Source: a phage
NCBI GenBank assembly: GCA_020364185.1
Contig: GCA_020364185.1_4846.1
Reading direction: 5' to 3' (one strand)
DNA length: 47,086 bases
The notes below the pieces were generated by a model that was not told the DNA's origin, ran no database searches, and saw nothing but the letters and a program-made list of their open reading frames with translations. Position 1 is the first letter of the stretch. The number at the start of each line of letters is the position of its first letter. The position numbers and the translations under genes were made by a program. Below, in pieces: positions 1,979 through 45,592 of this stretch.

Positions 1979-3847
1979 ATGAAAGTACAGCTTAGAACAT
2001 ACCAACAAGAAGCTGTTGATTCTGTTATATGTCATATTCGTTCAAGCGTTTCATCGTGCATGATCATCTTGCCTACAGGGTCTGGGAAAAGCGTTGTTGT
2101 TGCATCAATCGCCGATTGGGTATTTAAAAATACTGGCAAGCGCGTTCTGTGCGTTGCCCCAACAAGCGAGTTAGTTGTACAAAACAGGCAGCGTTTTCTT
2201 TCTCTTACCGGCGAGCCAGCCAGCATGTTCAGTGCAAAGGCTGGCCCCAAAAACCTGCGTCACCCGGTAGTGTTTGGTTCACCAGTTACAATCAAGAACT
2301 CAATAGAGATGTTTGGTGATAAGTATGGTGCTGTCATTATTGATGAATGTGATGGAATAACGCCAACCATTAAATTCATTATTAATGAGATGAAGCGTCG
2401 CAATCCAAAACTGCGTGTTATTGGAATGACCGCTACGCCTTACCGCCTTGGAACTGGATACATCTACAAAGAGCATTACCTCGACGGTCCTACAGATGAA
2501 GAAACAGCCATAGACCCATATTACGACAAAGTCGTTTATGAGCTTGAAGCTAAATTTCTCATCGAAAACGGATACCTTACTCCGCCAGTAACAGAGCCTG
2601 TTTTTGACGAGTATGATACGTCTTGTCTTGAAAAGGATAAGTTGGGTCGGTACACGATAGCTTCAGTTGAAAAGGCGATGGTTGGAAAAGGAAGAAAAAC
2701 ATCACGTATTGTTGAAGATATTATCCGTCGCTCTGTTAATCGGCGAGGAACGATGATTTTTGCCAGCACCAAGAAACACGCTATGGAGATAATGGAGTCA
2801 CTTCCTCCCGGTTCTTATAGTTATGTTTTTGGTGATATGCCGACAACGGAACGCAATAAGGCAATATCAGACTTCAAGGCGCAAAAAGTTAAATACATCG
2901 TTAACCAAAATATCCTTACTGTAGGGGTTGATGTTCCTCATTGTGATCACATAGCAGTAATGAGAGCCACAGAATCACCAAGGCTCTATCAGCAAATAAT
3001 TGGCAGGGGGACGCGTCTTTATGAAGGAAAGGAAGATTTTCTTGTCAGCGATTACGCAGGCAACATTCAGCGCCACTTTTCTGCGACTGGGGACTTATTC
3101 ACTCCAGAAATAAAAGCAACAAGGAAAAAACCATCCGTGCCAATGGATGTCAAATGCCCTCTTTGTGGCTTTATTAATGAATTTGGCGTGCGCCCAAATC
3201 CTGAAAATCTTGAAGTTGACAATGAGGGGTACTGGCTTGATCTGGCTGGTGACAGGGTTATGATTGACATTTTTGATAAATCAGGTGAAAAAGTTGGAAG
3301 AAAGCCAATGCCAGCTCATTTTGGCAGGAGGTGTAAAAACTATGTTATGCAAGGACCATTAAGAGAAATGCACAGATGCACTTATAAATGGTCGGTAAAA
3401 GAATGTCCTGATTGTGGATTTGAAAATGATATAGCGGCAAGAAACTGCACATCATGCGGATCTGAAATCATTGACCCAAACCAAAAGCTAAAAGAAGAAG
3501 CTGACAGGCTTGATTCTTCTCCTTATGCAACCAAGCAATCAAGTGTAACCATGATGAATATCATGAAGCATTACGTTTCAAGCGGAGAAGACTTGGTGCA
3601 CGTGAAATTTGCTATTGAGCACAAGCCATTTTTTGTTAGCAAGTTCTACAATCCAAACTCTGAGAAGGAATGGATGAGGAAGGAGTGGGAAGAGTTTTGC
3701 AGTAAGTGCTTTGATGAATCTGACATGTCAATTGATGATGCAATAGCAAAAAGAGATGAGGCTGTCGCGCCATCAGTGATTATGTTCAGAAGAGATAAGG
3801 GTAGTAAATATTTCAACGTTAAAGGCATGTATTGGGGGGTATTATGA
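1979..3847 (+). CDS. SF2 DEAD/DEAH-box DNA helicase with C-terminal Zn-ribbon motifs
   Basis: 622-aa ORF; Walker A LPTGSGKS, DEAD-box-like IIDECD, SAT-like MTATP; two CxxC pairs (CPLCG, CPDCG / CTSCG) in C-terminal region. Confidence 0.8.
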   Translation: MKVQLRTYQQEAVDSVICHIRSSVSSCMIILPTGSGKSVVVASIADWVFKNTGKRVLCVAPTSELVVQNRQRFLSLTGEPASMFSAKAGPKNLRHPVVFGSPVTIKNSIEMFGDKYGAVIIDECDGITPTIKFIINEMKRRNPKLRVIGMTATPYRLGTGYIYKEHYLDGPTDEETAIDPYYDKVVYELEAKFLIENGYLTPPVTEPVFDEYDTSCLEKDKLGRYTIASVEKAMVGKGRKTSRIVEDIIRRSVNRRGTMIFASTKKHAMEIMESLPPGSYSYVFGDMPTTERNKAISDFKAQKVKYIVNQNILTVGVDVPHCDHIAVMRATESPRLYQQIIGRGTRLYEGKEDFLVSDYAGNIQRHFSATGDLFTPEIKATRKKPSVPMDVKCPLCGFINEFGVRPNPENLEVDNEGYWLDLAGDRVMIDIFDKSGEKVGRKPMPAHFGRRCKNYVMQGPLREMHRCTYKWSVKECPDCGFENDIAARNCTSCGSEIIDPNQKLKEEADRLDSSPYATKQSSVTMMNIMKHYVSSGEDLVHVKFAIEHKPFFVSKFYNPNSEKEWMRKEWEEFCSKCFDESDMSIDDAIAKRDEAVAPSVIMFRRDKGSKYFNVKGMYWGVL

Positions 3848-14490: not shown

Positions 14491-14519
14491 TTGACACCTG
14501 CGGGGAGGTGATGTAGATT
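14491..14519 (+). promoter_or_regulatory. sigma70-like promoter (TTGACA - 17 bp - TAGATT) for plus-strand moron cassette
   Basis: TTGACA at 14491-14496, 17-bp spacer, TAGATT at 14514-14519, then GAGGTGAG RBS and ATG at 14555. Confidence 0.5.
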
Positions 14520-14554
14520 CAATTCATCGAAACGAGATATGAATGAGGTGAGTT

Positions 14555-14749
14555 ATGGATGTTGTTATTTTGTTGTTTTTCGCTGGGTTGGTGATATTTG
14601 CTTATCTTCTCCAATCATTTGTGGCATTGCAAAGAAAGCACACAAATACGACCGCAATCTGTGTGCTGAATATTCTTGTAGGGTGGAGCTTTATTGGGTG
14701 GGTTGCAGCACTTGTTTGGTCATTAGTTAACAGTGGCGACAAGAAATGA
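14555..14749 (+). CDS. small membrane protein resembling superinfection-immunity (Imm-type) proteins
   Basis: 64 aa, two hydrophobic helices; motif NILVGWSFIGWVAALVWSL resembles conserved GW-x-IGW core recalled for small Imm-like membrane proteins. Confidence 0.45.
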   Translation: MDVVILLFFAGLVIFAYLLQSFVALQRKHTNTTAICVLNILVGWSFIGWVAALVWSLVNSGDKK

Positions 14750-14889
14750 ACGAACAAACAAAAGCTGACCTGATTTTCTACACTGATTTGTATGTCGATG
14801 CAGGTTACGATTACGAAGAAGCAGAGCGCATGGCCAAAGACTTGCTTCGTGTGATTGGTGTGATTTTTGATAAGGATAAGGTGATATGA
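14746..14889 (+). CDS. hypothetical protein (47 aa), translationally coupled
   Basis: hand-translated ORF MNEQTKADLIFYTDLYVDAGYDYEEAERMAKDLLRVIGVIFDKDKVI; ATG overlaps upstream stop and its stop overlaps downstream ATG. Confidence 0.3.
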   Translation: MNEQTKADLIFYTDLYVDAGYDYEEAERMAKDLLRVIGVIFDKDKVI

Positions 14890-15230
14890 AAAATTATGAA
14901 GACATGAGTGATTTTGAGATTAACTGCGAAGTACTTGCATTGTTTGAGCCAGATGTTAATCACATGTGCCTTAGTGAAAGTAAGGGGTATTTCTATGACT
15001 GTGGACCAGTAGGTGATGGGTGGCATCAAATAGATATCCCTGACTACTGCAATAACCCGGAATACGCATTACCGATTATTTTAGCCAATCGAATTGGAAT
15101 GCTGCCATCAGAAATGAAGTGCAAAGAGCAGTGGATTTCAACTTCTGGTAAGGGCCAGTTCGAATATCATGAGAACCCTTTACGCGCCGCCATGATCGTC
15201 TTCCTGAAAATGAATGAGGATAAATTATGA
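14886..15230 (+). CDS. hypothetical protein
   Basis: 114-aa ORF in plus-strand cassette; ATGA overlaps with flanking ORFs. Confidence 0.45.
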   Translation: MKNYEDMSDFEINCEVLALFEPDVNHMCLSESKGYFYDCGPVGDGWHQIDIPDYCNNPEYALPIILANRIGMLPSEMKCKEQWISTSGKGQFEYHENPLRAAMIVFLKMNEDKL

Positions 15231-15427
15231 GCCAGTGGATTAAGTGCAGTGATAGGATGCCTGAAGAAGGTCAAATGGTTCTCACGTCGTTTCGTGGTGT
15301 TGTTAGAACAGCAGTATGCAAAACAGTCGATGGAATTGGAAGCAAGATATTTGTTAGTGAATTAGACCGCTGTCACGGCATTCCAGCTACCCATTGGGCC
15401 AATACACCAGAGCCACCACAAGAATAA
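15227..15427 (+). CDS. DUF551-like small protein
   Basis: 66 aa with W-x-K/C-x-D-x-MPEE...VL...THWA..PEPP pattern, paralogous in style to 19864-20127 (WIDVNDELPE...VL...THWMYLPELP). Confidence 0.45.
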   Translation: MSQWIKCSDRMPEEGQMVLTSFRGVVRTAVCKTVDGIGSKIFVSELDRCHGIPATHWANTPEPPQE

Positions 15428-15430
15428 AAC

Positions 15431-15457
15431 AAAGCCCCTTTCGGGGCTTTTTCTTTA
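15431..15457. terminator. bidirectional intrinsic terminator
   Basis: AAGCCCC-tttc-GGGGCTT stem-loop followed by TTTTCTTTAT; sits between plus-strand cassette end and minus-strand major tail gene end. Confidence 0.65.
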
Positions 15458-16225: not shown

Positions 16226-16254
16226 TTGACAGTGATTATTTTGTGGTGTAGATT
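16226..16254 (+). promoter_or_regulatory. sigma70-like promoter (TTGACA - 17 bp - TAGATT) heading the tRNA-containing plus-strand unit
   Basis: TTGACA 16226-16231, 17-bp spacer, TAGATT 16249-16254; region homologous to the 14467-14519 promoter cassette. Confidence 0.5.
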
Positions 16255-16520
16255 AAGATTTAACAGAGATTGGCTCCCTGATTTCATTTAATTACATCCA
16301 ATCCTTCAATTACAATTAGCGGTCGAAAGGCGCCGGACGCGTAACCGGCATACAACAGGTAAGAGCATTGGCGCATATCAGCGGAACTCGAACCCATTGC
16401 GCAGGCGACACAGACGTGTGTTTCAGTGTTCTTTCCGTTGTGGTAATGCCATATTGATTATTTGGATAGGTTTGCATCCATTGTTATGCCAGTTTCAGTT
16501 AATCGCGAAACGCCACAACA

Positions 16521-16586
16521 CTTAATATCCAGCATTATCGCAATCATATGTAGGGGTATGTATGGGTTACGGCGCTGGATATTAAG
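16521..16586. repeat. perfect 13-bp inverted repeat (CTTAATATCCAGC / GCTGGATATTAAG) enclosing a 40-nt loop
   Basis: read directly: left arm 16521-16533, right arm 16574-16586, in ORF-free leader upstream of the tRNA. Confidence 0.6.
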
Positions 16587-16620
16587 AAAGCACGCTGGCA
16601 ATGCTTAAACCAGCACTTAT

Positions 16621-16697
16621 GGACGCGTAGCTTAATTGGTTAAAGCAACCGACTCATAATCGGCTGATTGAAGGTTCAAATCCGTCCGTGTCCACCA
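16621..16697 (+). tRNA. tRNA-Met (anticodon CAU; could be initiator/elongator Met or lysidine-modified Ile2)
   Basis: manual fold: 7-bp acceptor stem (one G-U), U8, D-arm GCTT/AAGC with GG in loop, anticodon loop CUCAUAA, T-loop TTCAAAT, discriminator A and encoded CCA; two stem mismatches. Confidence 0.6.
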
Positions 16698-16702
16698 AAT
16701 TA

Positions 16703-16730
16703 AAAGCCGCTTCATGCGGCTTTATTTATT
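16703..16730. terminator. intrinsic terminator after tRNA (also at 3' end of convergent minus gene)
   Basis: AAGCCGC-ttcat-GCGGCTT stem-loop followed by TATTTATTT. Confidence 0.55.
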
Positions 16731-17272: not shown

Positions 17273-17764
17273 ATGATTTCAGAGCGTGATTACATAGCAA
17301 TCGCGTCAAGAGTTAAATACGACCCGATTACCGGATTGTTCACCTGGGCTGTAAGTTGCGGGAAAATATCAAAAGGTGATATTGCAAACTATCACAACGA
17401 CGCAGGATACATAACCCTTGGGAAGAAAAGATTAAGGGCGCACCGAGTGGCTTGGTTTATCCATTATGGATATGTCCCTGAGCATGAAATTGATCACATA
17501 AACAATATTCGTGATGACAATAGAATTTCAAATCTGAGGGAGGCCAGTGACTGCGAGAACGCAAGGAACACAAAGATATCTAAATCAAACACGTCTGGAT
17601 ATAAAGGAGTTCATTTTTGCAAGTGCACTGGGAAATGGAGAGCCACGGTAAAGATGCATGGGAAAACCTATCATCTTGGTAGGTTTTCAGACAAAGAAGC
17701 AGCCCATAAAGCCTATTGCAAAAAAGTAGATGAACTGTTTTTGGAGTTCGCAAACCACGGCTAA
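17273..17764 (+). CDS. HNH homing endonuclease with AP2-like DNA-binding domain
   Basis: GGAGG RBS then ATG 17273; motifs RLRAHRVAWFIHYGYVPEHEIDHINNIRDDNRISNLREAS (HNH) and SGYKGVHFCKCTGKWRATVKMHGKTYHLGRFSDKEAAHKAY (AP2-like); opposite strand to surrounding structural genes. Confidence 0.75.
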   Translation: MISERDYIAIASRVKYDPITGLFTWAVSCGKISKGDIANYHNDAGYITLGKKRLRAHRVAWFIHYGYVPEHEIDHINNIRDDNRISNLREASDCENARNTKISKSNTSGYKGVHFCKCTGKWRATVKMHGKTYHLGRFSDKEAAHKAYCKKVDELFLEFANHG

Positions 17765-19186: not shown

Positions 19187-19627
19187 TTATAGATTTGAAT
19201 CAGCGAAAAAACAATGGCGACCACGCCAAGAATAATGTCCAATTTCGCCGCCCCATTTAAAAGTGATGGAAAGGATGAACAGATGGATGCCGATAATAAT
19301 AAATGCGTACTGCGCATGAAGCGGCGTTTCTACAGGCGTGATAAATTCCCATACGAATGACTCTATCGCAACCAGCCATTCGTAAAGGCTCATCGTCAGC
19401 ACGCAGAGCGCCATCTTTGTATTTTTGCGCAGCGCAATAGCCGGAAACAACCAGACCATAGACTGCGCAAGGTAATACAGATATTCGGCGGGAAATGAAT
19501 CAACAAGCACCCATCCAAGATACACAGACATCACCATTGCCGGAATGAACACCAGAAAAGCGACCATGCCCGTGCAGGCAAAACCAAGCACATACATGAT
19601 CATGATGGAAATGTCTGCGCCGAACAT
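19187..19627 (-). CDS. multi-pass membrane protein
   Basis: 146 aa with at least four long hydrophobic segments; preceded by a 39-aa basic ORF (19629-19748, hand-translated). Confidence 0.45.
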   Translation of the reverse strand: MFGADISIMIMYVLGFACTGMVAFLVFIPAMVMSVYLGWVLVDSFPAEYLYYLAQSMVWLFPAIALRKNTKMALCVLTMSLYEWLVAIESFVWEFITPVETPLHAQYAFIIIGIHLFILSITFKWGGEIGHYSWRGRHCFFADSNL

Positions 19628-19793
19628 TATTTCTTACCGCGCGATGGTGAGCGGGTGGAACCGTTTGGCTTCACTGCGCCAGTTTTGCCACCAGTTTTGG
19701 TGTTGCCAGTGGCTCGTGAACGAGACGGACCGTTTGTTGAACCCATGTTTAAATCTCCTGTTGTTTGATTAGCATGATTTTAGCATATTCCTG

Positions 19794-19823
19794 TTGACGT
19801 AGATTGATGAGGTGTTTATAGTT
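19794..19823 (+). promoter_or_regulatory. promoter (TTGACG - 17 bp - TATAGT) with embedded TTGACGTAGATT motif
   Basis: TTGACGTAGATT at 19794-19805, TATAGT about 17 bp downstream of the -35; followed by conserved GAGGTGATAAAAATG leader and ATG 19864. Confidence 0.45.
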
Positions 19824-19863
19824 AGTGGCGTAGAAACAACAATAAATGTTAGAGGTGATAAAA

Positions 19864-20127
19864 ATGGAAATGCGATGGATTGATGTAAACGACGAATTGC
19901 CAGAATCGAAAGACGACTCCGTATTGGTATGCTCTGTTGATGGAAGCAAATACGATGAGAATGGTTTCCCGGAGGGCGGCATTGATATGGTTCATATCCA
20001 AGACTATTTTGATGATATTACTGCTGGTCTTGATGAAAACGGCAATCAGCTTTATACGAAGCGTTACATCGAAATGGGGATAACACATTGGATGTATCTT
20101 CCTGAGTTGCCAGTTTCTGTGAAGTGA
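19864..20127 (+). CDS. DUF551-like small protein
   Basis: 87 aa from ATG 19864 (GAGGTGA RBS); WIDVNDELPE ... VLVC ... THWMYLPELP pattern. Confidence 0.5.
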   Translation: MEMRWIDVNDELPESKDDSVLVCSVDGSKYDENGFPEGGIDMVHIQDYFDDITAGLDENGNQLYTKRYIEMGITHWMYLPELPVSVK

Positions 20128-20149
20128 TAATAAATATTGAGGTGATGAA

Positions 20150-20410
20150 ATGTTTGATATTGATAACCCAAGTGATGACAAAGCCAAGCTGATTGATGCG
20201 GTCGCTTGCAGTTTCGCATCTTGCCAGACAGAAGGTGAATATCAGGTTGTAAAAATGTGCATTGTTGAGTTCTTCTCAGCAATCAACATTCCTGATGATG
20301 AGGCTGTTGATATTCTGCTTAGTGCCGCTGGTAATTGCGCTGAGGCGGACGAATGCATTGATGAACTCGTTGAAGAGTTTGGCGGCATTTTTCAGGGTGA
20401 TGAGGAATAA
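20150..20410 (+). CDS. highly acidic small protein (candidate DNA mimic)
   Basis: 86 aa with about 22 Asp/Glu and 3 Lys; ATG 20150 preceded by GAGGTGATG. Confidence 0.5.
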   Translation: MFDIDNPSDDKAKLIDAVACSFASCQTEGEYQVVKMCIVEFFSAINIPDDEAVDILLSAAGNCAEADECIDELVEEFGGIFQGDEE

Positions 20411-20413
20411 ACA

Positions 20414-21223
20414 ATGAAAACACTAAGCAAAATCTATTCAGACAAAGAAACGCGCAACGGCATCGCTGTGAACAAAACCTATCTCGTGCCAGTTGAACAA
20501 ATCTATCTTGAGCCTGGATACAACATCCGTGAAGCAGATGAGCAGCACGTTGAATATTTCGCGCAGTGCTGGGAATCAGGTCAGCCATTGCCAGCGCTAA
20601 CAGTTATTCCTGATGAGAAAGGAATCCGCATTCTTGATGGTCAGCATCGTTATCTCGGTGCATTGCGTGCCATTGAGCGTGGAGCGCCAATCGTTCGCAT
20701 TGAGTGTAAGGACTTCACTGGCGATGAGGCTGACAAAATTGCTTTCATGGTGTCATCTAGCCAGGGTAAGCAGCTTGACCCGTTTGAACGTGCAAAGGCA
20801 TATACCAGACTGAAAGGCTTTGGCTGGACTAACGAAGAAATCGCCAAGAAGGTAGGCCGCTCAGTATCCGATGTGCAGATGCACCTGTCATTGGGTGATG
20901 TGCCAGCGGAAGTTAAAGCGCGAATCAATGCCGGGCAAATCAGTTATGCAAATGCCGTTGCGGTAACGCGTGAGCATGGCGATGATGCGGTTAAAGTTAT
21001 CGACGAGGCAGTGGAAGAAGCCAAAGCGCAAGGCAAAGATAAAGTCACGGCAAAAGTGCTTAAGTCGAAAAAGGTTAAGCCGGTTGACCGTCTTATTGAG
21101 TTACTCAAACTAGCAGACCATGTGATTCTTCCCGCTGGTCATGTAGTGGCAGAGGATGAGGAATTTATTCAGATTCCTGTTGCTGATATTCACGAGGTTA
21201 TGGCAATTCTGGAGAAGATGTGA
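20414..21223 (+). CDS. ParB-like nuclease domain protein with HTH
   Basis: 269 aa; ParB N-terminal domain signature IRILDGQHRYLGALRA and a central helix-turn-helix-like segment (TNEEIAKKVGRSVSDVQMHL). Confidence 0.7.
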   Translation: MKTLSKIYSDKETRNGIAVNKTYLVPVEQIYLEPGYNIREADEQHVEYFAQCWESGQPLPALTVIPDEKGIRILDGQHRYLGALRAIERGAPIVRIECKDFTGDEADKIAFMVSSSQGKQLDPFERAKAYTRLKGFGWTNEEIAKKVGRSVSDVQMHLSLGDVPAEVKARINAGQISYANAVAVTREHGDDAVKVIDEAVEEAKAQGKDKVTAKVLKSKKVKPVDRLIELLKLADHVILPAGHVVAEDEEFIQIPVADIHEVMAILEKM

Positions 21224-21426
21224 TGAATGAGCGTGATGACAAGTTAATTGCAGGATGGGGCGACCCACTACTGTCTAAGAAGGTTCACTATTTCCGCGAC
21301 GGGAAAATTATCAGTGAATGTGGTAAGTGGATGTTTGGCGGAGGAAGAGAAGATATATCAGCATGGAAGCCTGATGCAATATGCAAACAATGCCTAAGGA
21401 AATTTGAGAAGATGGAGAAGATTTGA
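21220..21426 (+). CDS. hypothetical protein (possible Cys-rich Zn-binding)
   Basis: 68 aa; ATGA overlap with ParB-like gene; Cys spacing ...ECGKW...CKQC. Confidence 0.4.
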   Translation: MMNERDDKLIAGWGDPLLSKKVHYFRDGKIISECGKWMFGGGREDISAWKPDAICKQCLRKFEKMEKI

Positions 21427-21599
21427 TGACGCCAGAACAATTCATCGAAAAACACCTCCGCGTAAAGCTGCCTGACATAGACCAGATGGCAATTGATGCG
21501 GCAATCCAGTATTACAAGCGCAATCAGAGCGCAAAGAAGGGTGGCATTTTTGAAGAATGCCTTAAGGTTGCAAAACAGCACATGATTAAGGTGAAGTGA
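21426..21599 (+). CDS. hypothetical protein (57 aa), translationally coupled
   Basis: hand-translated MTPEQFIEKHLRVKLPDIDQMAIDAAIQYYKRNQSAKKGGIFEECLKVAKQHMIKVK; start codon shares a base with the upstream stop (TGATG at 21424-21428) and its stop TGATG-overlaps the downstream ATG (21597-21601). Confidence 0.3.
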   Translation: MTPEQFIEKHLRVKLPDIDQMAIDAAIQYYKRNQSAKKGGIFEECLKVAKQHMIKVK

Positions 21600-22138
21600 T
21601 GAAACTAAAAATCAGCAAATTATTACTTGAATCAGCATTAATATTTCAGGCGCGCAATGATGTGCGTTACTACCTGAATGGTATCTGCTTCATGCCTGAT
21701 GGCCGCATTGCCTCAACTGACGGTCATCGCGCATTTATTGGTGGCAGCCATGACAACGAGATTGCTGAAAATATAATTGTAAAGGTAAGCAAGTCTCCGA
21801 CAAAGAAATATAACCATGCGATCATCGATACAAAATCTGGAATCGTTACTTATCATTTCGGTCATATAGACACAATGGTTGGTGCTGGTATCTGCGAAGA
21901 GATTGACGGAAGATTCCCTGATATTGATCGCGTGATACCAAAGGAAACGAAAGCAGCAGAGGAAATTGGCTTCAATGCTGGCTATCTGGTTGATATTGAG
22001 AAAGTGGCGAAGCTGTTTAATCCTAAGTTCTGTGGAGTAAAATTTGAACTGAATGGGAACACAAATGCTGCAGTTTGCTGTCTTAGTGCGCCATCTGGCG
22101 AGGCTGCGAAGATTGTTGTTATGCCGATGCGTCTGTAG
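21599..22138 (+). CDS. truncated DNA polymerase III beta sliding-clamp (DnaN) homologue lacking domain I and the middle of domain III
   Basis: 179 aa; colinear matches to E. coli DnaN C-terminal two thirds: NDVRYYLNGICF, STDGHRAF, IDGRFPDIDRVIPK, KFCGVKF and terminal IVVMPMRL (host protein ends YVVMPMRL, from memory). Confidence 0.65.
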   Translation: MKLKISKLLLESALIFQARNDVRYYLNGICFMPDGRIASTDGHRAFIGGSHDNEIAENIIVKVSKSPTKKYNHAIIDTKSGIVTYHFGHIDTMVGAGICEEIDGRFPDIDRVIPKETKAAEEIGFNAGYLVDIEKVAKLFNPKFCGVKFELNGNTNAAVCCLSAPSGEAAKIVVMPMRL

Positions 22139-22143
22139 CAATA

Positions 22144-22172
22144 AAAAGCCCCTTCACGGGGCTTTGTTTTTA
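22144..22172. terminator. bidirectional intrinsic terminator
   Basis: AAGCCCC-ttcac-GGGGCTT stem-loop followed by TGTTTTTAT; between plus operon end (22138) and minus gene end (22173). Confidence 0.65.
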
Positions 22173-23021
22173 TCACGCCAGATAAGTATCATCCTCAAAC
22201 CACGAGACATACGCATTGATATTCTGCGTCGAAGTATCCAGTGATGTTATGCGAAGCAGATACGTCGTATTTGGTGCCATGATAATTTGCTCGCCGAGTT
22301 TCGCCTGCGAGTTACCCTGCCCTTGATTCGATGCGTTACCCTCGCTATATGTTGCTGCGACCGTAAGCTGCCCGATGTTTGTCACAGTAGCGCCAGTAAG
22401 TAGCTGCGCTGTAGCTGCCTGCGGCGTTATGTCGTTTGGGTTGTTAATCTCTGCCGCCGTACCTCCGGTGACAACTGCGCCGCGATAGATTGACGCAATA
22501 ACACCTTTCCCTGTATAACCAATGATGCGCTGGTTGAATATCACCTGTTTTGTTCCGGTGATAAAGATGCTGTCAAGGTTTGAGCCACCTGCAACATCAG
22601 TTACTCTGCGCGACGCGGTGAATAGCTTTCCTTGCTTGTTGGCGCGCTCAATATATGATTGCGTGGTTATATCGCTTAGCGCCACATCAGGATGAAGGTT
22701 TACTACCGATTGCGGAGACACACCAGCGCGCCACACCGAAACGCGCAGCGAGTTTACTGCGGCTGGCAATTCCGTTTTGATTATCTTCAGGCGCAGCGCT
22801 ACGCCGTAATAATTATTATTGTTGACGTCAATCCAGTAGTTGCCAGATTCAAATGGCGACACCTTCACGGACACGGTTCCGCTAACCAATGGCGTGTATG
22901 CACCAGATGAATCAAGTGGCATCACGTTAACCTGCAGCGCCGTCCAGTCAGCAGACATCAGTTCATCAAGCATCACCTCGCCGTCATCCCGCGTGGTGAA
23001 TATGTCGTATCTTACAGCCAT
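22173..23021 (-). CDS. putative virion structural protein (Ser/Thr/Asn/Gly-rich)
   Basis: 282-aa ORF downstream of capsid gene block, flanked by terminators; composition typical of beta-rich structural proteins. Confidence 0.4.
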   Translation of the reverse strand: MAVRYDIFTTRDDGEVMLDELMSADWTALQVNVMPLDSSGAYTPLVSGTVSVKVSPFESGNYWIDVNNNNYYGVALRLKIIKTELPAAVNSLRVSVWRAGVSPQSVVNLHPDVALSDITTQSYIERANKQGKLFTASRRVTDVAGGSNLDSIFITGTKQVIFNQRIIGYTGKGVIASIYRGAVVTGGTAAEINNPNDITPQAATAQLLTGATVTNIGQLTVAATYSEGNASNQGQGNSQAKLGEQIIMAPNTTYLLRITSLDTSTQNINAYVSWFEDDTYLA

Positions 23022-31932: not shown

Positions 31933-31988
31933 TCTATCACAATGGCTATTGACGTAGATTGAGTGGTGGTGCATAGTATCTACATCAA
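31933..31988. promoter_or_regulatory. divergent promoter region (plus TTGACGTAGATT; minus TGATGTAGATA and extended -10 TGATAGAAT)
   Basis: TTGACGTAGATT 31949-31960; ATCTACATCA 31978-31987; ATTCTATCA 31931-31939. Confidence 0.45.
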
Positions 31989-32009
31989 ATGATGAGTGAG
32001 GTGATAAAA

Positions 32010-32171
32010 ATGAATCCGCGTGACGTTACTTTTTGCAGTGAGTCAAATCCGAAGGCTGCGAAGGTTGCCAACAGAAAGGCAAAGGTGAAGCAATTGATGG
32101 ACGCCGGTCACACCAAGAAAGCAGCTCAACGCATGGTCAAAGAAATGAAATGGATGAGTGCAAAATGGTAA
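32010..32171 (+). CDS. hypothetical basic protein
   Basis: ATG 32010 preceded by GAGGTGATAAAA leader identical to that at 19852-19866. Confidence 0.35.
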   Translation: MNPRDVTFCSESNPKAAKVANRKAKVKQLMDAGHTKKAAQRMVKEMKWMSAKW

Positions 32172-32308
32172 TGGTCAAATTCAAAGAAAACGGACGCTGC
32201 TCAGTGTTAAGCCTTGAGCAAATCAAAATCCGTCCGTGCGGTAAAGTGGTTGCGCCATTTGGTCTGGTGCAGATGCGTGAAGTTGAGATTATTGAATATA
32301 TTAAGTGA
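32171..32308 (+). CDS. hypothetical protein (45 aa)
   Basis: hand-translated ORF coupled by TAATG overlap. Confidence 0.3.
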   Translation: MVKFKENGRCSVLSLEQIKIRPCGKVVAPFGLVQMREVEIIEYIK

Positions 32309-32316
32309 GGTTGGTG

Positions 32317-32607
32317 ATGGAAGAATTTAAAGGTACGCCGGGTCCGTGGTTTTTTGATGAGGCATTTAATGTTTATGAAGGTGACAGGGATGGACACATT
32401 TGCACTGTCACGTCATGGCTTGATGAGCCAACTGCGGATGCTAATGGCTTCTTGCTTGCGGCATCTCCTGACCTGTTATCCTCGCTCCAGCAGCTTCTGG
32501 AAATCTACGACGACCACTCCGGCAAAGTCTGGACAACATCAAGCAAGCGCCGCGCTCTGGATAATGCGCGTGCGGCGGTTAATAAGGCATTGGGAGAAAC
32601 AAAATGA
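32317..32607 (+). CDS. hypothetical protein
   Basis: ATG 32317 after GAGG RBS; ATGA overlap with next gene. Confidence 0.4.
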   Translation: MEEFKGTPGPWFFDEAFNVYEGDRDGHICTVTSWLDEPTADANGFLLAASPDLLSSLQQLLEIYDDHSGKVWTTSSKRRALDNARAAVNKALGETK

Positions 32608-33176
32608 AACTTATCGACCTGTTAGTTCAAGAATTACCTAAGCGTGGCGGGTGGCCTGATGGTGCAATTTATATCTGCACAGAAAAAGATGGCACTCCAC
32701 GCATTGTTGGTTCTGGTTGGCACGATAATAAATCATTATCATCATTTAAAGTTAATGATGACAAAAGCATAATTGACTTCGATCAATACGAGTCTGCGCT
32801 CGCCGCATCGCAAAAGCAGACATGGAACGGCGAAGGCCTGCCTCCGGTTGGGTGTGAGTGTGAATATCTCGACAACAACGGCAAGTGGTATCCGGTAACA
32901 ATTAAATACGCGTCAAACCAACTGGTTGTTATTTCTGGAATAACTAAAATCCTCGGCGTAGAGCAGGGCACGGAAATAGCAAAAGATATCATCATCGACA
33001 AACCGCAGTTCCGCCCACTACGCACAGAATCAGAGAGGAGGCATGAGGCTGTACTTGAATCTATCTGCGCGGTATTAGAGATGGCAGATCAGGATTACAA
33101 GCGCAGAGATGAGGCCAAACTCATTTATGAAGCCATCGCGGCAGGCAAGATTCCCGGCGTGAAACTGGATGATTAA
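32604..33176 (+). CDS. hypothetical protein
   Basis: 190-aa ORF, last gene of plus cassette before terminator. Confidence 0.45.
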   Translation: MKLIDLLVQELPKRGGWPDGAIYICTEKDGTPRIVGSGWHDNKSLSSFKVNDDKSIIDFDQYESALAASQKQTWNGEGLPPVGCECEYLDNNGKWYPVTIKYASNQLVVISGITKILGVEQGTEIAKDIIIDKPQFRPLRTESERRHEAVLESICAVLEMADQDYKRRDEAKLIYEAIAAGKIPGVKLDD

Positions 33177-36599: not shown

Positions 36600-36607
36600 C
36601 GATGGAT

Positions 36608-37483
36608 ATGAATCAAGTTATTAGCTTTTCAGGCGGCAGGACTTCAGCGTTTATGACACTTGAGGTGCTAAAGATACACCCAGAAGCAGAGGTTATCTTT
36701 ATGGACACTGGAGCAGAGCACCCAAAAACGTATGAGTTTATTCGCAACTTCGCAAAGCACTTCAATGTCGCCGTGACATGTCTTCGTGTGGTGCCAAATC
36801 ATGAGATGCGCAAAGCAAGTACGTATGAGCAGTTAACCGTCGATGAGATTGGCCCGGACCTTGAGCCATGGCGTAGAATGTTGCGCAAGTACGGTCACCC
36901 ATATGTTGGTGGGGCGTTCTGCACTGACCGCATGAAAACAGTCCCATTCACAAAATACTGCAATGAAAAATACGGGAAGAGCAATTATGAGAGATGGCTT
37001 GGTATCAGGGTTGATGAACAAAATCGGTTAAAGAATAGAGGTGACGGTTTTCATTACCTTGCAGACATCAGTGACTTTGAAAAGCAGGATATCCTTGACT
37101 GGTGGTCAATGCAAGAGTTCGACCTTGGCATTAAGGAGCATCTTGGCAATTGCGTTTTCTGCATCAAGAAGAGTCTGCAGAAGGTTGCGCTTGCTGCAAA
37201 GGATGAGCCTGAACTTGCCGCTGAATTTTGGCAGATGATTCAGGCTGAAGATAAAAAATCAGACAAGATAATGTATCGTTCAAACAGAAGCCTTGGCGAC
37301 GTTATAGCTTTATTTAACGATGCAAGCAGGGATGAACTGGCATCACGGATGACGTCAATGCGCCAGTACGATACTGGCTCATGCAGTGAGAGCTGCGAGG
37401 CGTTTGGTGGGACCGAGAATTCAATGAAGCATTACTTAAATGACGCTGGTGATGATTATGAAAATCGTGGCGATGACTCATGA
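36608..37483 (+). CDS. PAPS reductase-like PP-loop ATPase family protein
   Basis: N-terminal ISFSGGRTSA PP-loop; start at ATG 36608 (8 nt after AAGGAG) preferred over 36602. Confidence 0.7.
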   Translation: MNQVISFSGGRTSAFMTLEVLKIHPEAEVIFMDTGAEHPKTYEFIRNFAKHFNVAVTCLRVVPNHEMRKASTYEQLTVDEIGPDLEPWRRMLRKYGHPYVGGAFCTDRMKTVPFTKYCNEKYGKSNYERWLGIRVDEQNRLKNRGDGFHYLADISDFEKQDILDWWSMQEFDLGIKEHLGNCVFCIKKSLQKVALAAKDEPELAAEFWQMIQAEDKKSDKIMYRSNRSLGDVIALFNDASRDELASRMTSMRQYDTGSCSESCEAFGGTENSMKHYLNDAGDDYENRGDDS

Positions 37484-43046: not shown

Positions 43047-43262
43047 ATGTACAGGTTTGGTAGCGCAATGGCTGAGGTGTATGAGTTTGTTAGCGGGATG
43101 TCGATTGGAGAGGTGCGATTTTTTGTGGTAGATGATTTCCGTGCCAATAACAGTATTGAAAAATTCAGGGCGAGCCTGTGCTGTGTTGCGAAAGATAATT
43201 CGTGGCTTTTTGTAACCAGAAAGATGGAAGAAGGCGAAGTGTCTGTTCGGAGGATTAAATGA
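43047..43262 (+). CDS. hypothetical protein
   Basis: 71 aa from ATG 43047 (GGAGG RBS); stop overlaps primase start (ATGA). Confidence 0.4.
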   Translation: MYRFGSAMAEVYEFVSGMSIGEVRFFVVDDFRANNSIEKFRASLCCVAKDNSWLFVTRKMEEGEVSVRRIK

Positions 43263-45592
43263 TGATTGGTTATGAAGATTACCGCAAATGTGGCTTCCCT
43301 ATTATTGGAATCCATGCAATGGATATCGACCGCAATTGCACATGCGGTGATCCAGAATGCAATGCTGCCGGTAAGCATCCGGTTATGAGTAACTGGCAGC
43401 TTGGAGTTATATGGGCTGATGACCAGATTGAAAATATGGCTGAATATGGTCAATTGCAGTCATTCGGTGTCCTTGTGAATGGTTATCTGGTAGTTGATAT
43501 TGATCCACGCAACGGAGGTAATGATGGATATGAATCACTTTGTGATGCCTTAGACGTAGAGCTTGCTGACGAAGCTGGCTTTACTGTTAAGACTGGTGGT
43601 GGTGGTCGCCACATCTATTACAAACTTCCTGAAGGAATAAAGCTGCGCTCTCATGACAGAAGGTTTAAGGGTATTGACTTTAAATCATCTGGTTTTGTTG
43701 TTGGCTGCGGCTCATTCCATAAGTCAGGTAACTTTTATGAAGCTGAGCATGGCTCTCCTTCAGAGATAACTGAATGCCCTTCTGAACTTATTGAGCTTTT
43801 GTTGCGTCCTGAGAGAACGGAAGACGAGGTTTTCACGCTTGATAGTAAAAATTACAGCATTGCCGAAATGGAGGATATGCTCAAATACATCAAAGATGGT
43901 GATGAGTATGACCCATGGCTTCATGTGGGCATGGCTATCCACGAAGCTACAGAAGGCAATGGTTTTGAACTTTGGGATAGGTGGTCATCGCAGTTCAGCA
44001 AGTACAGAGCTGAAGAAATGGACGCAAAATGGCATTCCTTTGGAAAGGACGGTGTTAACGAAAAGATAACCGAAGCAACGCTGGTTTATCTCGCGCAAGA
44101 GGGAGGGTGGGTAAGGCAAGTAACTTTTGAGGCTACTCCAGAGGAAATTGAGAAACTTGAGTCTTTCGAACGAGAGATGGCAATGGGTGTTGGTGAATGC
44201 CCTGTAGAGTACAAAAGTGTTGATGTCCGTTATCCGCCTGGATTTGTTGGTCGCCTTACGGCGTGGATTAATAAGAACTGTGCAGAGAAGCGAGAGAATA
44301 TTGCAGCACTTGCTGCATTGCACGCTGCATCCATGATTTGTGGGGCGTCATCTGATATTTATCTTACAAACAGGAAAGCCTTACCAAACCTGTTTGCTGT
44401 TGGTATAGCTGGTTCAGGTTCAGGTAAGGGTGATGTCCTTGCTGCGCTACAAAAGATAATTGATTGCTCAGGATTGAGTAAGACTGTCGCCGGTAAGATA
44501 CGTTCAGAGCGTGCGATATATGAAGGTCTTTGCGCTAACCAGATGTTTAATATCATCATGGATGAGATTGGGATAAAACTTGGGAGTGTTGTTGGTCAGA
44601 AAGTAAGCGAGTACAACATGGCAACCGCTGGTGCGATCATGGAGGCTTACACGTCAGAAGTTCTTTATTGTGACCAGCGGGTTACTGAGGATTTCATTAA
44701 GTCTTTCGAAAAGAGAAAGGCTATGCTGTTGATGGCTATTGAGGAAAATGAGATACAGGCAGACCCCGTTGACATTAAGTGTCAGTTTGATGATGTGATA
44801 AACAGAATTGACGGAGCTATAAGGAATCCATTTTTTTCAATCTTTGGTGTGTCTACTGATGATCAGTTTAAGCGACTTATTACTGAAGAAAACATTAAGT
44901 CAGGTCTTATGGGTCGTGCAATGATTATGCAGGAGTTACAGGAGATTGCTGACGAAAACGAAAACGTCAACTACTGTGATCTACCTATGGATATGCAACT
45001 GACCATAAAAACAATAATAAATGGAGGAACAGCTGGGCACAAAAACTGGACAGACTCAATAATCAGTCAAAAAGAAAGACGGATTATAAAAGCTACGCCT
45101 GAAGTTTCTCAGCTCGCTAAGGAGTTCTTCTCATGGATTAAAACCGTTGCAAGAAAGCATGTAGAAAATGGTACTGGTTATCACCCATTGATAAACAGAT
45201 GCGCCGTGAAGGTGGCAAAGATTGCTGGCATTCTCGCGTGCGATACTGGCGTCATAACCATGGAGCACTTGAGGTATGCGGTAGCATTAACAATTAAATC
45301 AACAAGCGATCTGATGATGCGTGCTGACAGTATCGCCGGAGCGAAGTCTAAAGCTATGGAAGAACGAATTGAAGGTATTTTCTCCATGGTTAAAGAATAT
45401 GTGAAGCGTGGAATGACCAAAACAGCAATGGTTAGAGGGGTAGCAAAAGAAGGTGGGTATAAACGTGCTGATGTCGAGAGGTGCGTAGAGAAGTTGTTAT
45501 CAGATGGTATTATTTGCATTGATGAAAATGCAAAAAGAACATCTCACAACGTAATAATTTACAAATTAACAAATGATGAGGTTGAGATATGA
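43259..45592 (+). CDS. primase-polymerase (AEP-type) replication protein with central P-loop NTPase region
   Basis: 777 aa; N-terminal Prim-Pol-like motifs (VVDIDPRNGG, TVKTGGGGRHIYYKLP, GIDFKSSGFVVGCGSFHKSGNFYE), PriCT-like WLHVGMAIH...LWDRWS, Walker A GIAGSGSGKG. Confidence 0.65.
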   Translation: MMIGYEDYRKCGFPIIGIHAMDIDRNCTCGDPECNAAGKHPVMSNWQLGVIWADDQIENMAEYGQLQSFGVLVNGYLVVDIDPRNGGNDGYESLCDALDVELADEAGFTVKTGGGGRHIYYKLPEGIKLRSHDRRFKGIDFKSSGFVVGCGSFHKSGNFYEAEHGSPSEITECPSELIELLLRPERTEDEVFTLDSKNYSIAEMEDMLKYIKDGDEYDPWLHVGMAIHEATEGNGFELWDRWSSQFSKYRAEEMDAKWHSFGKDGVNEKITEATLVYLAQEGGWVRQVTFEATPEEIEKLESFEREMAMGVGECPVEYKSVDVRYPPGFVGRLTAWINKNCAEKRENIAALAALHAASMICGASSDIYLTNRKALPNLFAVGIAGSGSGKGDVLAALQKIIDCSGLSKTVAGKIRSERAIYEGLCANQMFNIIMDEIGIKLGSVVGQKVSEYNMATAGAIMEAYTSEVLYCDQRVTEDFIKSFEKRKAMLLMAIEENEIQADPVDIKCQFDDVINRIDGAIRNPFFSIFGVSTDDQFKRLITEENIKSGLMGRAMIMQELQEIADENENVNYCDLPMDMQLTIKTIINGGTAGHKNWTDSIISQKERRIIKATPEVSQLAKEFFSWIKTVARKHVENGTGYHPLINRCAVKVAKIAGILACDTGVITMEHLRYAVALTIKSTSDLMMRADSIAGAKSKAMEERIEGIFSMVKEYVKRGMTKTAMVRGVAKEGGYKRADVERCVEKLLSDGIICIDENAKRTSHNVIIYKLTNDEVEI

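Follow-up and report, generated by a model that had tools for sequence, protein, structure and literature searches.

Accessory islands of tailed phages have been described under the moron concept of Juhala/Hendrix. The pocket of the bacterial beta clamp (DnaN) is an antibiotic target, and it is the central site at which proteins of bacterial replication and repair dock. Phages are known to attack this pocket with proteins that bear a clamp-binding motif, and overexpression of one of them, MuC of phage Mu, is reported to cause host replication to over-initiate (PMC12867686). Here we describe a plus-strand cassette at positions 19794-22172 of a phage contig of 47,086 nucleotides (nt) (contig GCA_020364185.1_4846.1 of assembly GCA_020364185.1; the whole of this stretch is referred to as the window), the six genes of which specify, among others, a ParB/KorB-like DNA-binding protein and a half-size derivative of DnaN, designated mini-beta. 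The reading that we favour, to which a probability of roughly one half may be given, is that the cassette represents an early replication/host-takeover operon in which mini-beta would act as a pocket module that, away from any clamp ring, binds proteins carrying the clamp-binding motif.

In silico analysis established that the cassette is a plus-strand transcription unit enclosed by minus-strand structural genes. A first-pass annotation, made from the sequence alone, had proposed a self-contained six-gene operon inserted in the structural module; the promoter, leader, terminator and six genes were all located where it had placed them, and the unit is real and conserved across relatives, but a recent insertion was not borne out, as the cassette is present, at the same position, in all relatives examined and thus represents an ancestral feature of the group. 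The 3-kb region shares 88-91% nucleotide identity with a group of virulent siphophages with genomes of ~47 kb (194 matching records), among them Escherichia phages Sa179lw, swi2 and C1, Shigella phage Sf11, Salmonella/Klebsiella phage IME207 and many Salmonella phages. In annotated relatives the plus-strand block is bordered by two minus-strand genes, one located after the major capsid gene and specifying a protein of 282 amino acids (aa), the other, a 'lipoprotein' gene, located before the head-tail genes; relatives of the cassette with conserved promoter hexamers and terminator stem comprise ~40 Salmonella, Escherichia and Klebsiella siphophages. A minus-strand 39-aa gene (phrog_34767, 19627-19746) overlaps the 'lipoprotein' gene at its start and thereby leaves a divergent intergenic region of only 117 nt (19747-19863), which must hold the cassette promoter together with whatever drives the downstream late genes. 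Each of the six plus-strand open reading frames (ORFs) has a Shine-Dalgarno sequence and a match to a PHROG family, while the five minus-strand ORFs of 89-142 aa within the cassette were treated as spurious because none matches any family. The gene overlaps noted earlier were confirmed as one-base TGATG overlaps at the final three gene junctions.

A consensus promoter scan of the window returned sites that were no commoner than in shuffled sequence, and a match to the consensus alone consequently means little. By contrast, the window contains four copies of the stricter pattern TTGACR-N17-TAKAKT, where 0.08 would be expected. In 26 of 27 distinct relatives, moreover, neither the hexamers of the cassette promoter nor their distance from the neighbouring gene change, whereas the 3' half of the spacer is free to vary, and this is the signature of selection on a promoter. 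The element TTGACGTAGATT, given as the promoter in the first-pass annotation, consists of the -35 hexamer plus a conserved extension, this hexamer being part of a phage-wide motif, TTGACGTAGAT. Downstream, the leader contains GAGGTGATAAAAATG at 19852-19866, of which a second exact copy is located at 31998. The longest first ORFs of relatives all start with MLEVxKM, and the leader ATGTTAGAGGTGATAAAAATG is retained whatever gene comes first, from which it follows that exchange of cargo occurs right at the ribosome-binding site. The terminator hairpin (22145-22165; 8-bp stem, -17.8 kcal/mol, z = -3.58) retains its GCCCC/GGGGC stem in relatives while its loop varies, and it ends both the cassette and the convergent minus-strand gene at 22173-23021.

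The organisation of the cassette was compared by locating its six proteins by tblastn in 40 related loci fetched from IMG/VR and in two annotated ones, and by clustering the chained plus-strand ORFs between the flanking genes; the counts given refer to the 39 complete loci. The genes for the ParB-like protein, the 57-aa protein and mini-beta form a core that is present in the same order in 39 of 39 loci, and the 57-aa gene, directly upstream of the mini-beta gene in most of them, is translationally coupled to mini-beta; in the window it overlaps both neighbours by one base, at its start and at its stop. The slot before the ParB-like gene was occupied by genes for DUF551 (3 loci), the acidic 86-aa protein (12), a ~110-aa protein (15), an acidic 63-aa protein (10) or a 207-aa protein (9), and that between the ParB-like and 57-aa genes by the 67-aa gene (5 loci), a zinc-ribbon protein, an N6/N4 methyltransferase, a C5 methyltransferase, a methyltransferase-endonuclease VII fusion or an HNH-AP2 homing endonuclease; at least 20 different gene clusters were found in the cargo slots in all. 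The HNH-AP2 family fills this second slot in two relatives (L018 and L030), and a gene of the same family is present in the window on the plus strand at 17273-17764, within the minus-strand head-tail genes. The cassette thus represents a conserved operon scaffold the cargo of which can be exchanged; it is not a fully coordinated module of six genes, nor have its genes been piled up at random as morons. The earlier view of a coordinated module as opposed to random morons holds for the fixed three-gene core, but not for the DUF551, acidic and 67-aa genes, and as these are exchangeable, half of the module behaves like morons. The cassette displays several traits of accessory islands, namely a promoter and terminator of its own, a location between genes of a conserved module and a deviating base composition (GC content 0.41-0.48 as compared to 0.48-0.53 in the flanks), while presence/absence polymorphism applies to the DUF551, acidic and 67-aa genes and not to the cassette as a whole or to its three core genes. 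The identification of the first product as DUF551-like was upheld by a Pfam match above the gathering score, and a second DUF551 gene is located in a neighbouring island (Table 1).

Table 1. Coordinates of the cassette elements and of other features in the window
Feature	Position	Strand	Evidence or remark
Sigma-70-type promoter	19794..19822	+	-35 TTGACG 19794-19799, 17-nt spacer, -10 TATAGT 19817-19822; 10/12 consensus
Conserved 5' leader with Shine-Dalgarno	19836..19863	+	GAGGTGATAAAA, then ATG of first gene; invariant in relatives
DUF551 protein, 87 aa, variable cargo	19864..20127	+	Pfam PF04448 3.1e-8, 34.8 bits (cut-off 22)
Acidic 86-aa protein, variable cargo	20150..20410	+	phrog_14587 'anti-restriction' 1e-46
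ParB/KorB-like DNA-binding protein, 269 aa, core	20414..21223	+	phrog_1033 3e-90
67-aa protein with Cys residues, variable cargo	21223..21426	+	phrog_2358 2e-24; TGATG overlap with ParB-like stop codon
57-aa protein, core	21426..21599	+	phrog_4439 2e-22; tblastn-positive in all complete relatives
Mini-beta, DnaN derivative, 179 aa, core	21599..22138	+	E. coli beta 1mmi 2e-12 (phmmer against PDB sequences)
Bidirectional intrinsic terminator	22145..22172	both	AAAGCCCC-TTCAC-GGGGCTTT, T-runs on both strands; detected on both strands
TGAYGTAGAT, seven promoter-like intergenic sites, often paired	14509, 16244, 19795, 29232/29258, 31950/31978, 36469/36547/36578, 42424/42442		
T4 Imm-like superinfection immunity protein	14555-14749		island 14491-15450
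NinX-like protein	14886-15230		island 14491-15450
Second DUF551 protein	15227-15427		island 14491-15450
tRNA-Met	16621-16697		CAT anticodon; followed by terminator 16703-16723

The last gene of the core was found to encode a drastically shortened clamp. Residues 7-155 of mini-beta align with residues 136-289 of E. coli beta and residues 119-179 with 313-366 (phmmer, the same two segments being obtained by BLAST), its C-terminus is the clamp's own VVMPMRL, and a MAFFT alignment of homologues from seven phage genera with beta 133-366 placed one clean gap over beta 251-311 in all members. From this alignment to beta 136-250 and 311-366 it follows that mini-beta consists of domain II joined to the second half of domain III, with no equivalent of domain I or of the first half of domain III. 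The absent segment holds I272/L273, the residues mutated in a monomeric variant of the beta clamp (PMC11139829), and the dimer interface, in which domain I contacts domain III and to which these residues belong, has no counterpart in mini-beta. An AlphaFold2 (AF2) model built from an alignment of 82 members reached a predicted local distance difference test score (pLDDT) of 97 and a predicted template-modelling score (pTM) of 0.91, and the top 50 Foldseek matches in the PDB were all beta clamps (E ~1e-7, probability 1.0, TM-score on query ~0.65), with those of E. coli as the best. The protein scores below the cut-offs of the clamp families (35 bits against 137.65 for TIGR00663, and 16 and 15 bits against 27 for Pfam beta_2 and beta_3), and Pfam returned no match to the N-terminal clamp domain. 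A HMMER (phmmer) scan of 1.8 billion representative proteins yielded 2,122 matches, and the best 150 of these are nearly all 170-210 aa in length, with only three full-length clamps among them; such near-uniform length identifies a family and not a pseudogene. Mini-beta is therefore an intact member of a large phage family of ~180-aa proteins, so that its earlier description as a truncated DnaN homologue or clamp fragment was correct as to its origin and truncation, although it is not debris. The label 'RusA-like Holliday junction resolvase', which RefSeq and phrog_3007 attach to this protein, was rejected, as no RusA match was obtained in Pfam (E<=1) or NCBIfam (E<=0.1) and the fold is that of a beta clamp; the phrog_3007 label is an annotation error and recurs in many phage records, including NC_054637 and NC_031924.

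E. coli itself is said to make a short, UV-inducible clamp, beta*, from an internal start within dnaN and without domain I (reportedly the work of Skaliter, Paz-Elizur and Livneh in 1996), and this form is reported to have domain III intact and to be active as an oligomeric clamp. Mini-beta begins at about beta residue 135, where beta* is reported to start, and shares with beta* the N-terminal truncation and the lack of domain I, differing in that it also lacks residues 251-311. It might accordingly be proposed that mini-beta is a true ring-forming processivity clamp, for example a tetramer of three beta-alpha-beta-beta-beta units, that serves a host or phage polymerase, in agreement with its resemblance to phrog_947 'DNA polymerase processivity factor' (3e-10), with the position of the PhiXhv-5 homologue next to a helicase and a DNA polymerase, and with an N-terminus that aligns from beta 136. 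We consider this improbable, as domain I and the segment containing the I272/L273 interface are missing, the score against TIGR00663 is far below its cut-off of 138, and neither a clamp loader nor a polymerase was detected in the phage; moreover, a channel-lining helix that beta has in the second half of domain II is absent from the secondary structure of the model. Owing to the missing domains and interface a head-to-tail dimeric ring, in particular, is very unlikely.

In contrast to the ring-forming parts, the partner-binding pocket of the clamp has been retained. In E. coli beta this pocket comprises subsite I (R152, L155, T172, G174, H175, R176, L177, P242, R246, V247, V360 and M362) and subsite II (H175, N320, Y323, V344, M362, P363, M364 and R365), V344 being a residue that is not conserved among clamps (PMC11139829). 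Despite an overall identity of ~30%, 16 of these 18 residues are identical in mini-beta at the sequence level (R23, L26, T40, G42, H43, R44, P107, R111, V112, N126, Y129, V173, M175, P176, M177 and R178), the exceptions being A45 in place of L177 and T155 in place of V344. Across 82 divergent family members the mean top-residue frequency is 0.73 in the pocket columns as compared to 0.39 elsewhere (Mann-Whitney p = 2e-6), and pocket residues account for 10 of the 15 columns with the highest conservation. In close relatives mini-beta shows a mean identity of 85%, as against 96% for the ParB-like protein, yet the pocket is nearly invariant.

With the pocket kept and encirclement of DNA apparently impossible, mini-beta is best explained as an off-ring binder of proteins with clamp-binding motifs. 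According to this explanation, the cassette, which lies antisense within the late structural genes of a virulent siphophage in which no DNA polymerase was detected, would be a unit driven by host RNA polymerase and probably expressed early. It joins an invariant core of ParB/KorB-like protein, 57-aa protein and mini-beta to swappable cargo slots, filled here by DUF551, the acidic 86-aa and the 67-aa proteins. Mini-beta, a DnaN derivative of one and a half domains, has lost the ring-forming parts and kept the hydrophobic pocket in which all clamp partners dock by their clamp-binding motif, and could then as a soluble protein bind host proteins bearing the motif, such as the alpha subunit of DNA polymerase III (Pol III), the clamp-loader subunit delta, Hda and repair/translesion factors. 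Two outcomes may be envisaged, as mini-beta might serve as an adaptor through which phage DNA recruits the host replicase or clamp loader, or as a sponge that withdraws partners from the host clamp.

Several points weigh against this explanation. The motifs of the pocket are also what makes a protein recognisable as DnaN, and as the homologues were collected by similarity, the conservation signal is in part one of ascertainment; the pocket residues are, besides, the most conserved residues of DnaN in general, and retention was judged from residue identities as opposed to model geometry. A motif scan detected no credible clamp-binding motif in the phage's own proteins, its only match, QMHLSL, being located inside the recognition helix of the ParB helix-turn-helix (HTH) and reflecting the LRLL motif of that family, and in neither the DNA polymerase nor the helicase that flank the PhiXhv-5 homologue was such a motif found. 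To a phage that itself depends on Pol III, a decoy for the partners of this enzyme would moreover be harmful, and we found no published functional study of the mini-beta family. While the anatomy and conservation of the operon, its division into core and cargo, and the fold, domain loss and conserved pocket of mini-beta are established, we infer peptide binding, the identity of the partners, the oligomeric state, early timing of expression and any functional link between the ParB-like protein and mini-beta.

The replication genes of the phage and the genomic contexts of mini-beta homologues bear on the same question. The phage encodes a primase (43259-45592), a helicase (1979-3847), an SSB, a Sak4-like annealase and a Mu-Gam-like protein, and no DNA polymerase was detected among its ORFs of at least 450 aa, a 791-aa ORF at the position of a relative's tape-measure gene having been left unscanned; with no polymerase detected, the phage must use host Pol III. 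Elsewhere, mini-beta homologues were found between the helicase and the DNA polymerase in PhiXhv-5, after a helicase and a nuclease in Nafs113, and among methyltransferases, a dUTPase and a primase in Skarpretter. In Dhillonvirus EP23, Bcep43, Proteus phage Isfahan, a Kagunavirus and the ~42-kb Salmonella phage SaI_NFG_5577 the gene occurs as a lone opposite-strand gene in head or tail modules, a placement that is expected for a gene needing early expression within late DNA. These contexts fit an early role in DNA metabolism, and those in PhiXhv-5 and Nafs113 speak for replication no less than for anti-defence. Among side observations, a plus-strand island between head genes of Shigella phage EP23 (3998-5356) pairs the mini-clamp with a gene for nucleotide modification associated domain 5 (Nmad5), and in Skarpretter, Vibrio XM1, Pseudomonas D14E and eight close relatives a DNA methyltransferase gene lies at most two genes away from the mini-clamp. 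A link between mini-beta and DNA modification is possible and these placements are suggestive of it, but it is not claimed here, methyltransferases being common in early regions.

The second principal member of the core was characterised as a ParB-type DNA-binding protein, with Pfam matches to HTH_ParB (1.5e-11, 44.8 bits, cut-off 22.6) and KorB (1.2e-6, 28.8 bits, cut-off 22.3), matches in the PDB to Spo0J (1vz0, 6e-13) and also to ParB, Noc and KorB structures, and an N-terminal region whose alignment with Spo0J extends over the site of the GERR box. The first-pass annotation had termed it a ParB-like nuclease-domain protein, of which the ParB-type HTH, together with a KorB domain, was substantiated while 'nuclease' was left unsupported. 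The GERR and ENLQR boxes of ParB proteins act in cytidine triphosphate (CTP) binding. In the phage protein these boxes are degenerate, with GQHR where Spo0J has GERR and SSSQG where ParB proteins have ENLQR, and a canonical CTPase activity therefore appears doubtful. For the N-terminal CTP-binding domain, PF02195 was not reported and TIGR00180 scored 40 bits against a cut-off of 58.45. No ParA was detected among the ORFs scanned, in a scan that was not exhaustive, and no parS site was identified. The ParB-like gene is the most conserved of the cassette (97-99% identity in most relatives, 82-83% in those of the Klebsiella type), which is more in keeping with a housekeeping role in DNA binding or regulation than with an arms race. 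A PAPS-reductase-like gene at 36602-37483 lies behind another TTGACGTAGAT promoter, and together with the ParB-like protein, which is of the DGQHR type, it recalls the DndB/DndC or IbrA/IbrB pairs, a hint of DNA modification or regulation. Such a pairing was set aside, as the two genes are 15 kb apart and four informative distant ParB-like loci have no PAPS reductase nearby.

Co-occurrence of the ParB-like and DnaN-like genes, suggested earlier as a comparative check on the module, proved not to be general. No ParB-like gene was present within 3.5-4 kb of the mini-clamp at any of 11 distant mini-clamp loci, which rules out ParB plus mini-beta as a universal pair, whereas two of eight distant ParB-like loci had a mini-clamp in the same operon, these being Pseudomonas phage D14E (E = 2.5e-24, with an adjoining C5 methyltransferase) and Burkholderia phage AH2 (E = 5e-7, with a degenerate pocket). 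As each of the two genes occurs in only ~0.6% of phage records, the association is facultative but probably not pure chance. It could nonetheless be argued that there is no functional coupling at all, and that the cassette is a permissive landing pad behind an early promoter in which unrelated morons have settled, the ParB-like and mini-beta genes being together by descent only. Three of the six cassette genes are variable, no other gene of the cassette, the ParB-like and 57-aa genes included, is found near mini-beta at the 11 distant loci, mini-beta stands alone on the opposite strand in structural modules of at least five other genera, and two more promoter-terminator islands with unrelated cargo are present at 14491-15450 and 31949-33176. 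On the other hand, the order of the core is fixed in all 39 loci despite intense turnover of cargo between the core genes, the 57-aa and mini-beta genes overlap by one base, and ParB-like and mini-beta genes recur in one operon in D14E and AH2 in spite of their rarity, so that we regard a complete absence of coupling as improbable.

The acidic 86-aa protein had been one of three products from which a host-takeover or anti-defence module was suggested. Its high acidity was confirmed (22 Asp/Glu as compared to 3 Lys, giving a net charge of ~-19 by hand count), and it is confined to this phage group, with 18 protein clusters among 5.8 billion database sequences. The AF2 model is a four-helix bundle (pLDDT 82). 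Pfam yielded nothing above noise, the PDB sequence search nothing below E = 0.2, Foldseek against the PDB a best match, to an unrelated protein, at E = 0.8, and the fold search against BFVD only its own homologue from 64795_sal3 and one weak match to an uncharacterised protein of phage SeSz-2. Membership of Ocr, ArdA, ArdB/KlcA or another known family of mimics or anti-restriction proteins was thus rejected on the Pfam, PDB and BFVD results, and the term DNA-mimic-like was not sustained, high acidity being the sole trait shared with known mimics; on charge alone, a DNA mimic is possible. As the protein has no significant match to a solved structure or a named viral protein, the 'anti-restriction' label of phrog_14587 is to be taken as unverified.

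A dedicated anti-defence module, in which the acidic protein as a DNA mimic would block restriction or BREX-type systems and the ParB-like protein and mini-clamp would neutralise or decoy immune proteins, was evaluated on this basis and is considered unlikely. Three kinds of DNA methyltransferase in the same operon of relatives would agree with it, as would the PHROG label, the strong negative charge, the faster evolution of mini-beta than of the ParB-like protein in the same genomes and the lower GC content of the cassette than of the flanking genes. However, the acidic protein resembles no characterised anti-defence protein in Pfam, PDB or BFVD, the PADLOC defence models matched none of the six cassette proteins, the acidic and DUF551 proteins are missing from most relatives, the ParB-like protein is under strong purifying selection and not in an arms race, and mini-beta homologues elsewhere sit in replication modules. 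The anti-defence part of the proposal made by the first-pass annotation is supported by the anti-restriction-type (methyltransferase) cargo of relatives, but by neither a defence-model match nor a known mimic.

The cassette promoter was found to belong to a family. The motif TTGACGTAGAT occurs at seven sites with at most one mismatch (four of them exact) as compared to 0.69 expected, and at least five promoters of this type are present in the genome, that of the cassette included. The related 10-nt motif TGAYGTAGAT has 19 matches with at most one mismatch as compared to 4.1 expected; at some of the sites listed in Table 1 it represents the -35 hexamer with its conserved extension, and at others it coincides in part with the -10 hexamer (TAGATT). 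The motif may act throughout the phage as an element of early promoters or as an operator, for which the KorB-like protein is a candidate binder. A second copy of the cassette promoter and leader at 31946-32012 (75-77% identity, again with GAGGTGATAAAAATG), the leader part of which spans 31982-32012, precedes another plus-strand island. As its promoter is one of a family and is duplicated elsewhere, the cassette is probably co-regulated with other early units and not uniquely autonomous.

The island behind the duplicated promoter and leader (31946-33176) comprises three plus-strand ORFs of 60, 100 and 190 aa, the last belonging to phrog_7798, among minus-strand head genes. A further promoter-terminator island is situated between tail genes at 14491-15450 and ends in a bidirectional terminator at 15431-15450. 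At 16226-16723 a near-consensus promoter, TTGACA-17-TAGATT, is followed by ~370 nt without a convincing ORF and then by a tRNA-Met gene; this ~370-nt leader matched no Rfam family and may be a tRNA precursor leader or a non-coding RNA.

The operon in itself is an ordinary, if neat, early accessory island, while the family of pocket-only mini-clamps is a real and testable oddity. Correction of the RusA label in RefSeq and PHROG affects hundreds of phage genomes, and the cassette maps a cargo hot spot at which methyltransferases and other counter-defence candidates are exchanged. If the proposed function is true, mini-beta would provide a pocket module that is natural, highly foldable and, at 179 aa, compact, with which clamp partners could be studied or titrated, and would explain how polymerase-less enterobacterial siphophages engage the host replicase. 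Taken further, the ~180-aa mini-betas might constitute a widespread and so far unrecognised class of host-takeover proteins, soluble mimics that would intercept the clamp interactome (Pol III alpha, delta, Hda and repair/translesion factors) and be expressed early from antisense islands, here together with a KorB-like regulator recognising TGAYGTAGAT; this wider proposal is a tentative one, and rather doubtful.

Compared with known systems, the cassette shares with the morons and accessory islands of tailed phages its own promoter and terminator, its location in a conserved late module, its lower GC content and the rapid turnover of its cargo, while it differs in being multigenic with a core conserved throughout the group, and not a single gene that is either present or absent. 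The ParB-like protein resembles the CTP-dependent DNA clamps and regulators ParB, Spo0J, Noc and KorB in its ParB-type HTH, KorB domain and Spo0J-alignable N-terminal region, and is set apart from them by its degenerate CTP boxes, the lack of an identified ParA or parS and its residence in the genome of a virulent phage. With DnaN (E. coli beta, PDB 2POL/1MMI) mini-beta has homology in sequence (2e-12) and in fold, over domain II and the C-terminal half of domain III, and a pocket that includes MPMRL; it is however 179 aa in length as compared to 366 aa, and is without domain I, the first half of domain III and the dimer interface. As with MuC of phage Mu (PMC12867686) and clamp-binding-motif peptides (PMC11139829), the same motif and pocket surface would serve as the lever on host replication control, but where these carry the motif and bind the host clamp, mini-beta has the pocket and would bind partners that bear the motif, which, if true, represents the reverse strategy.

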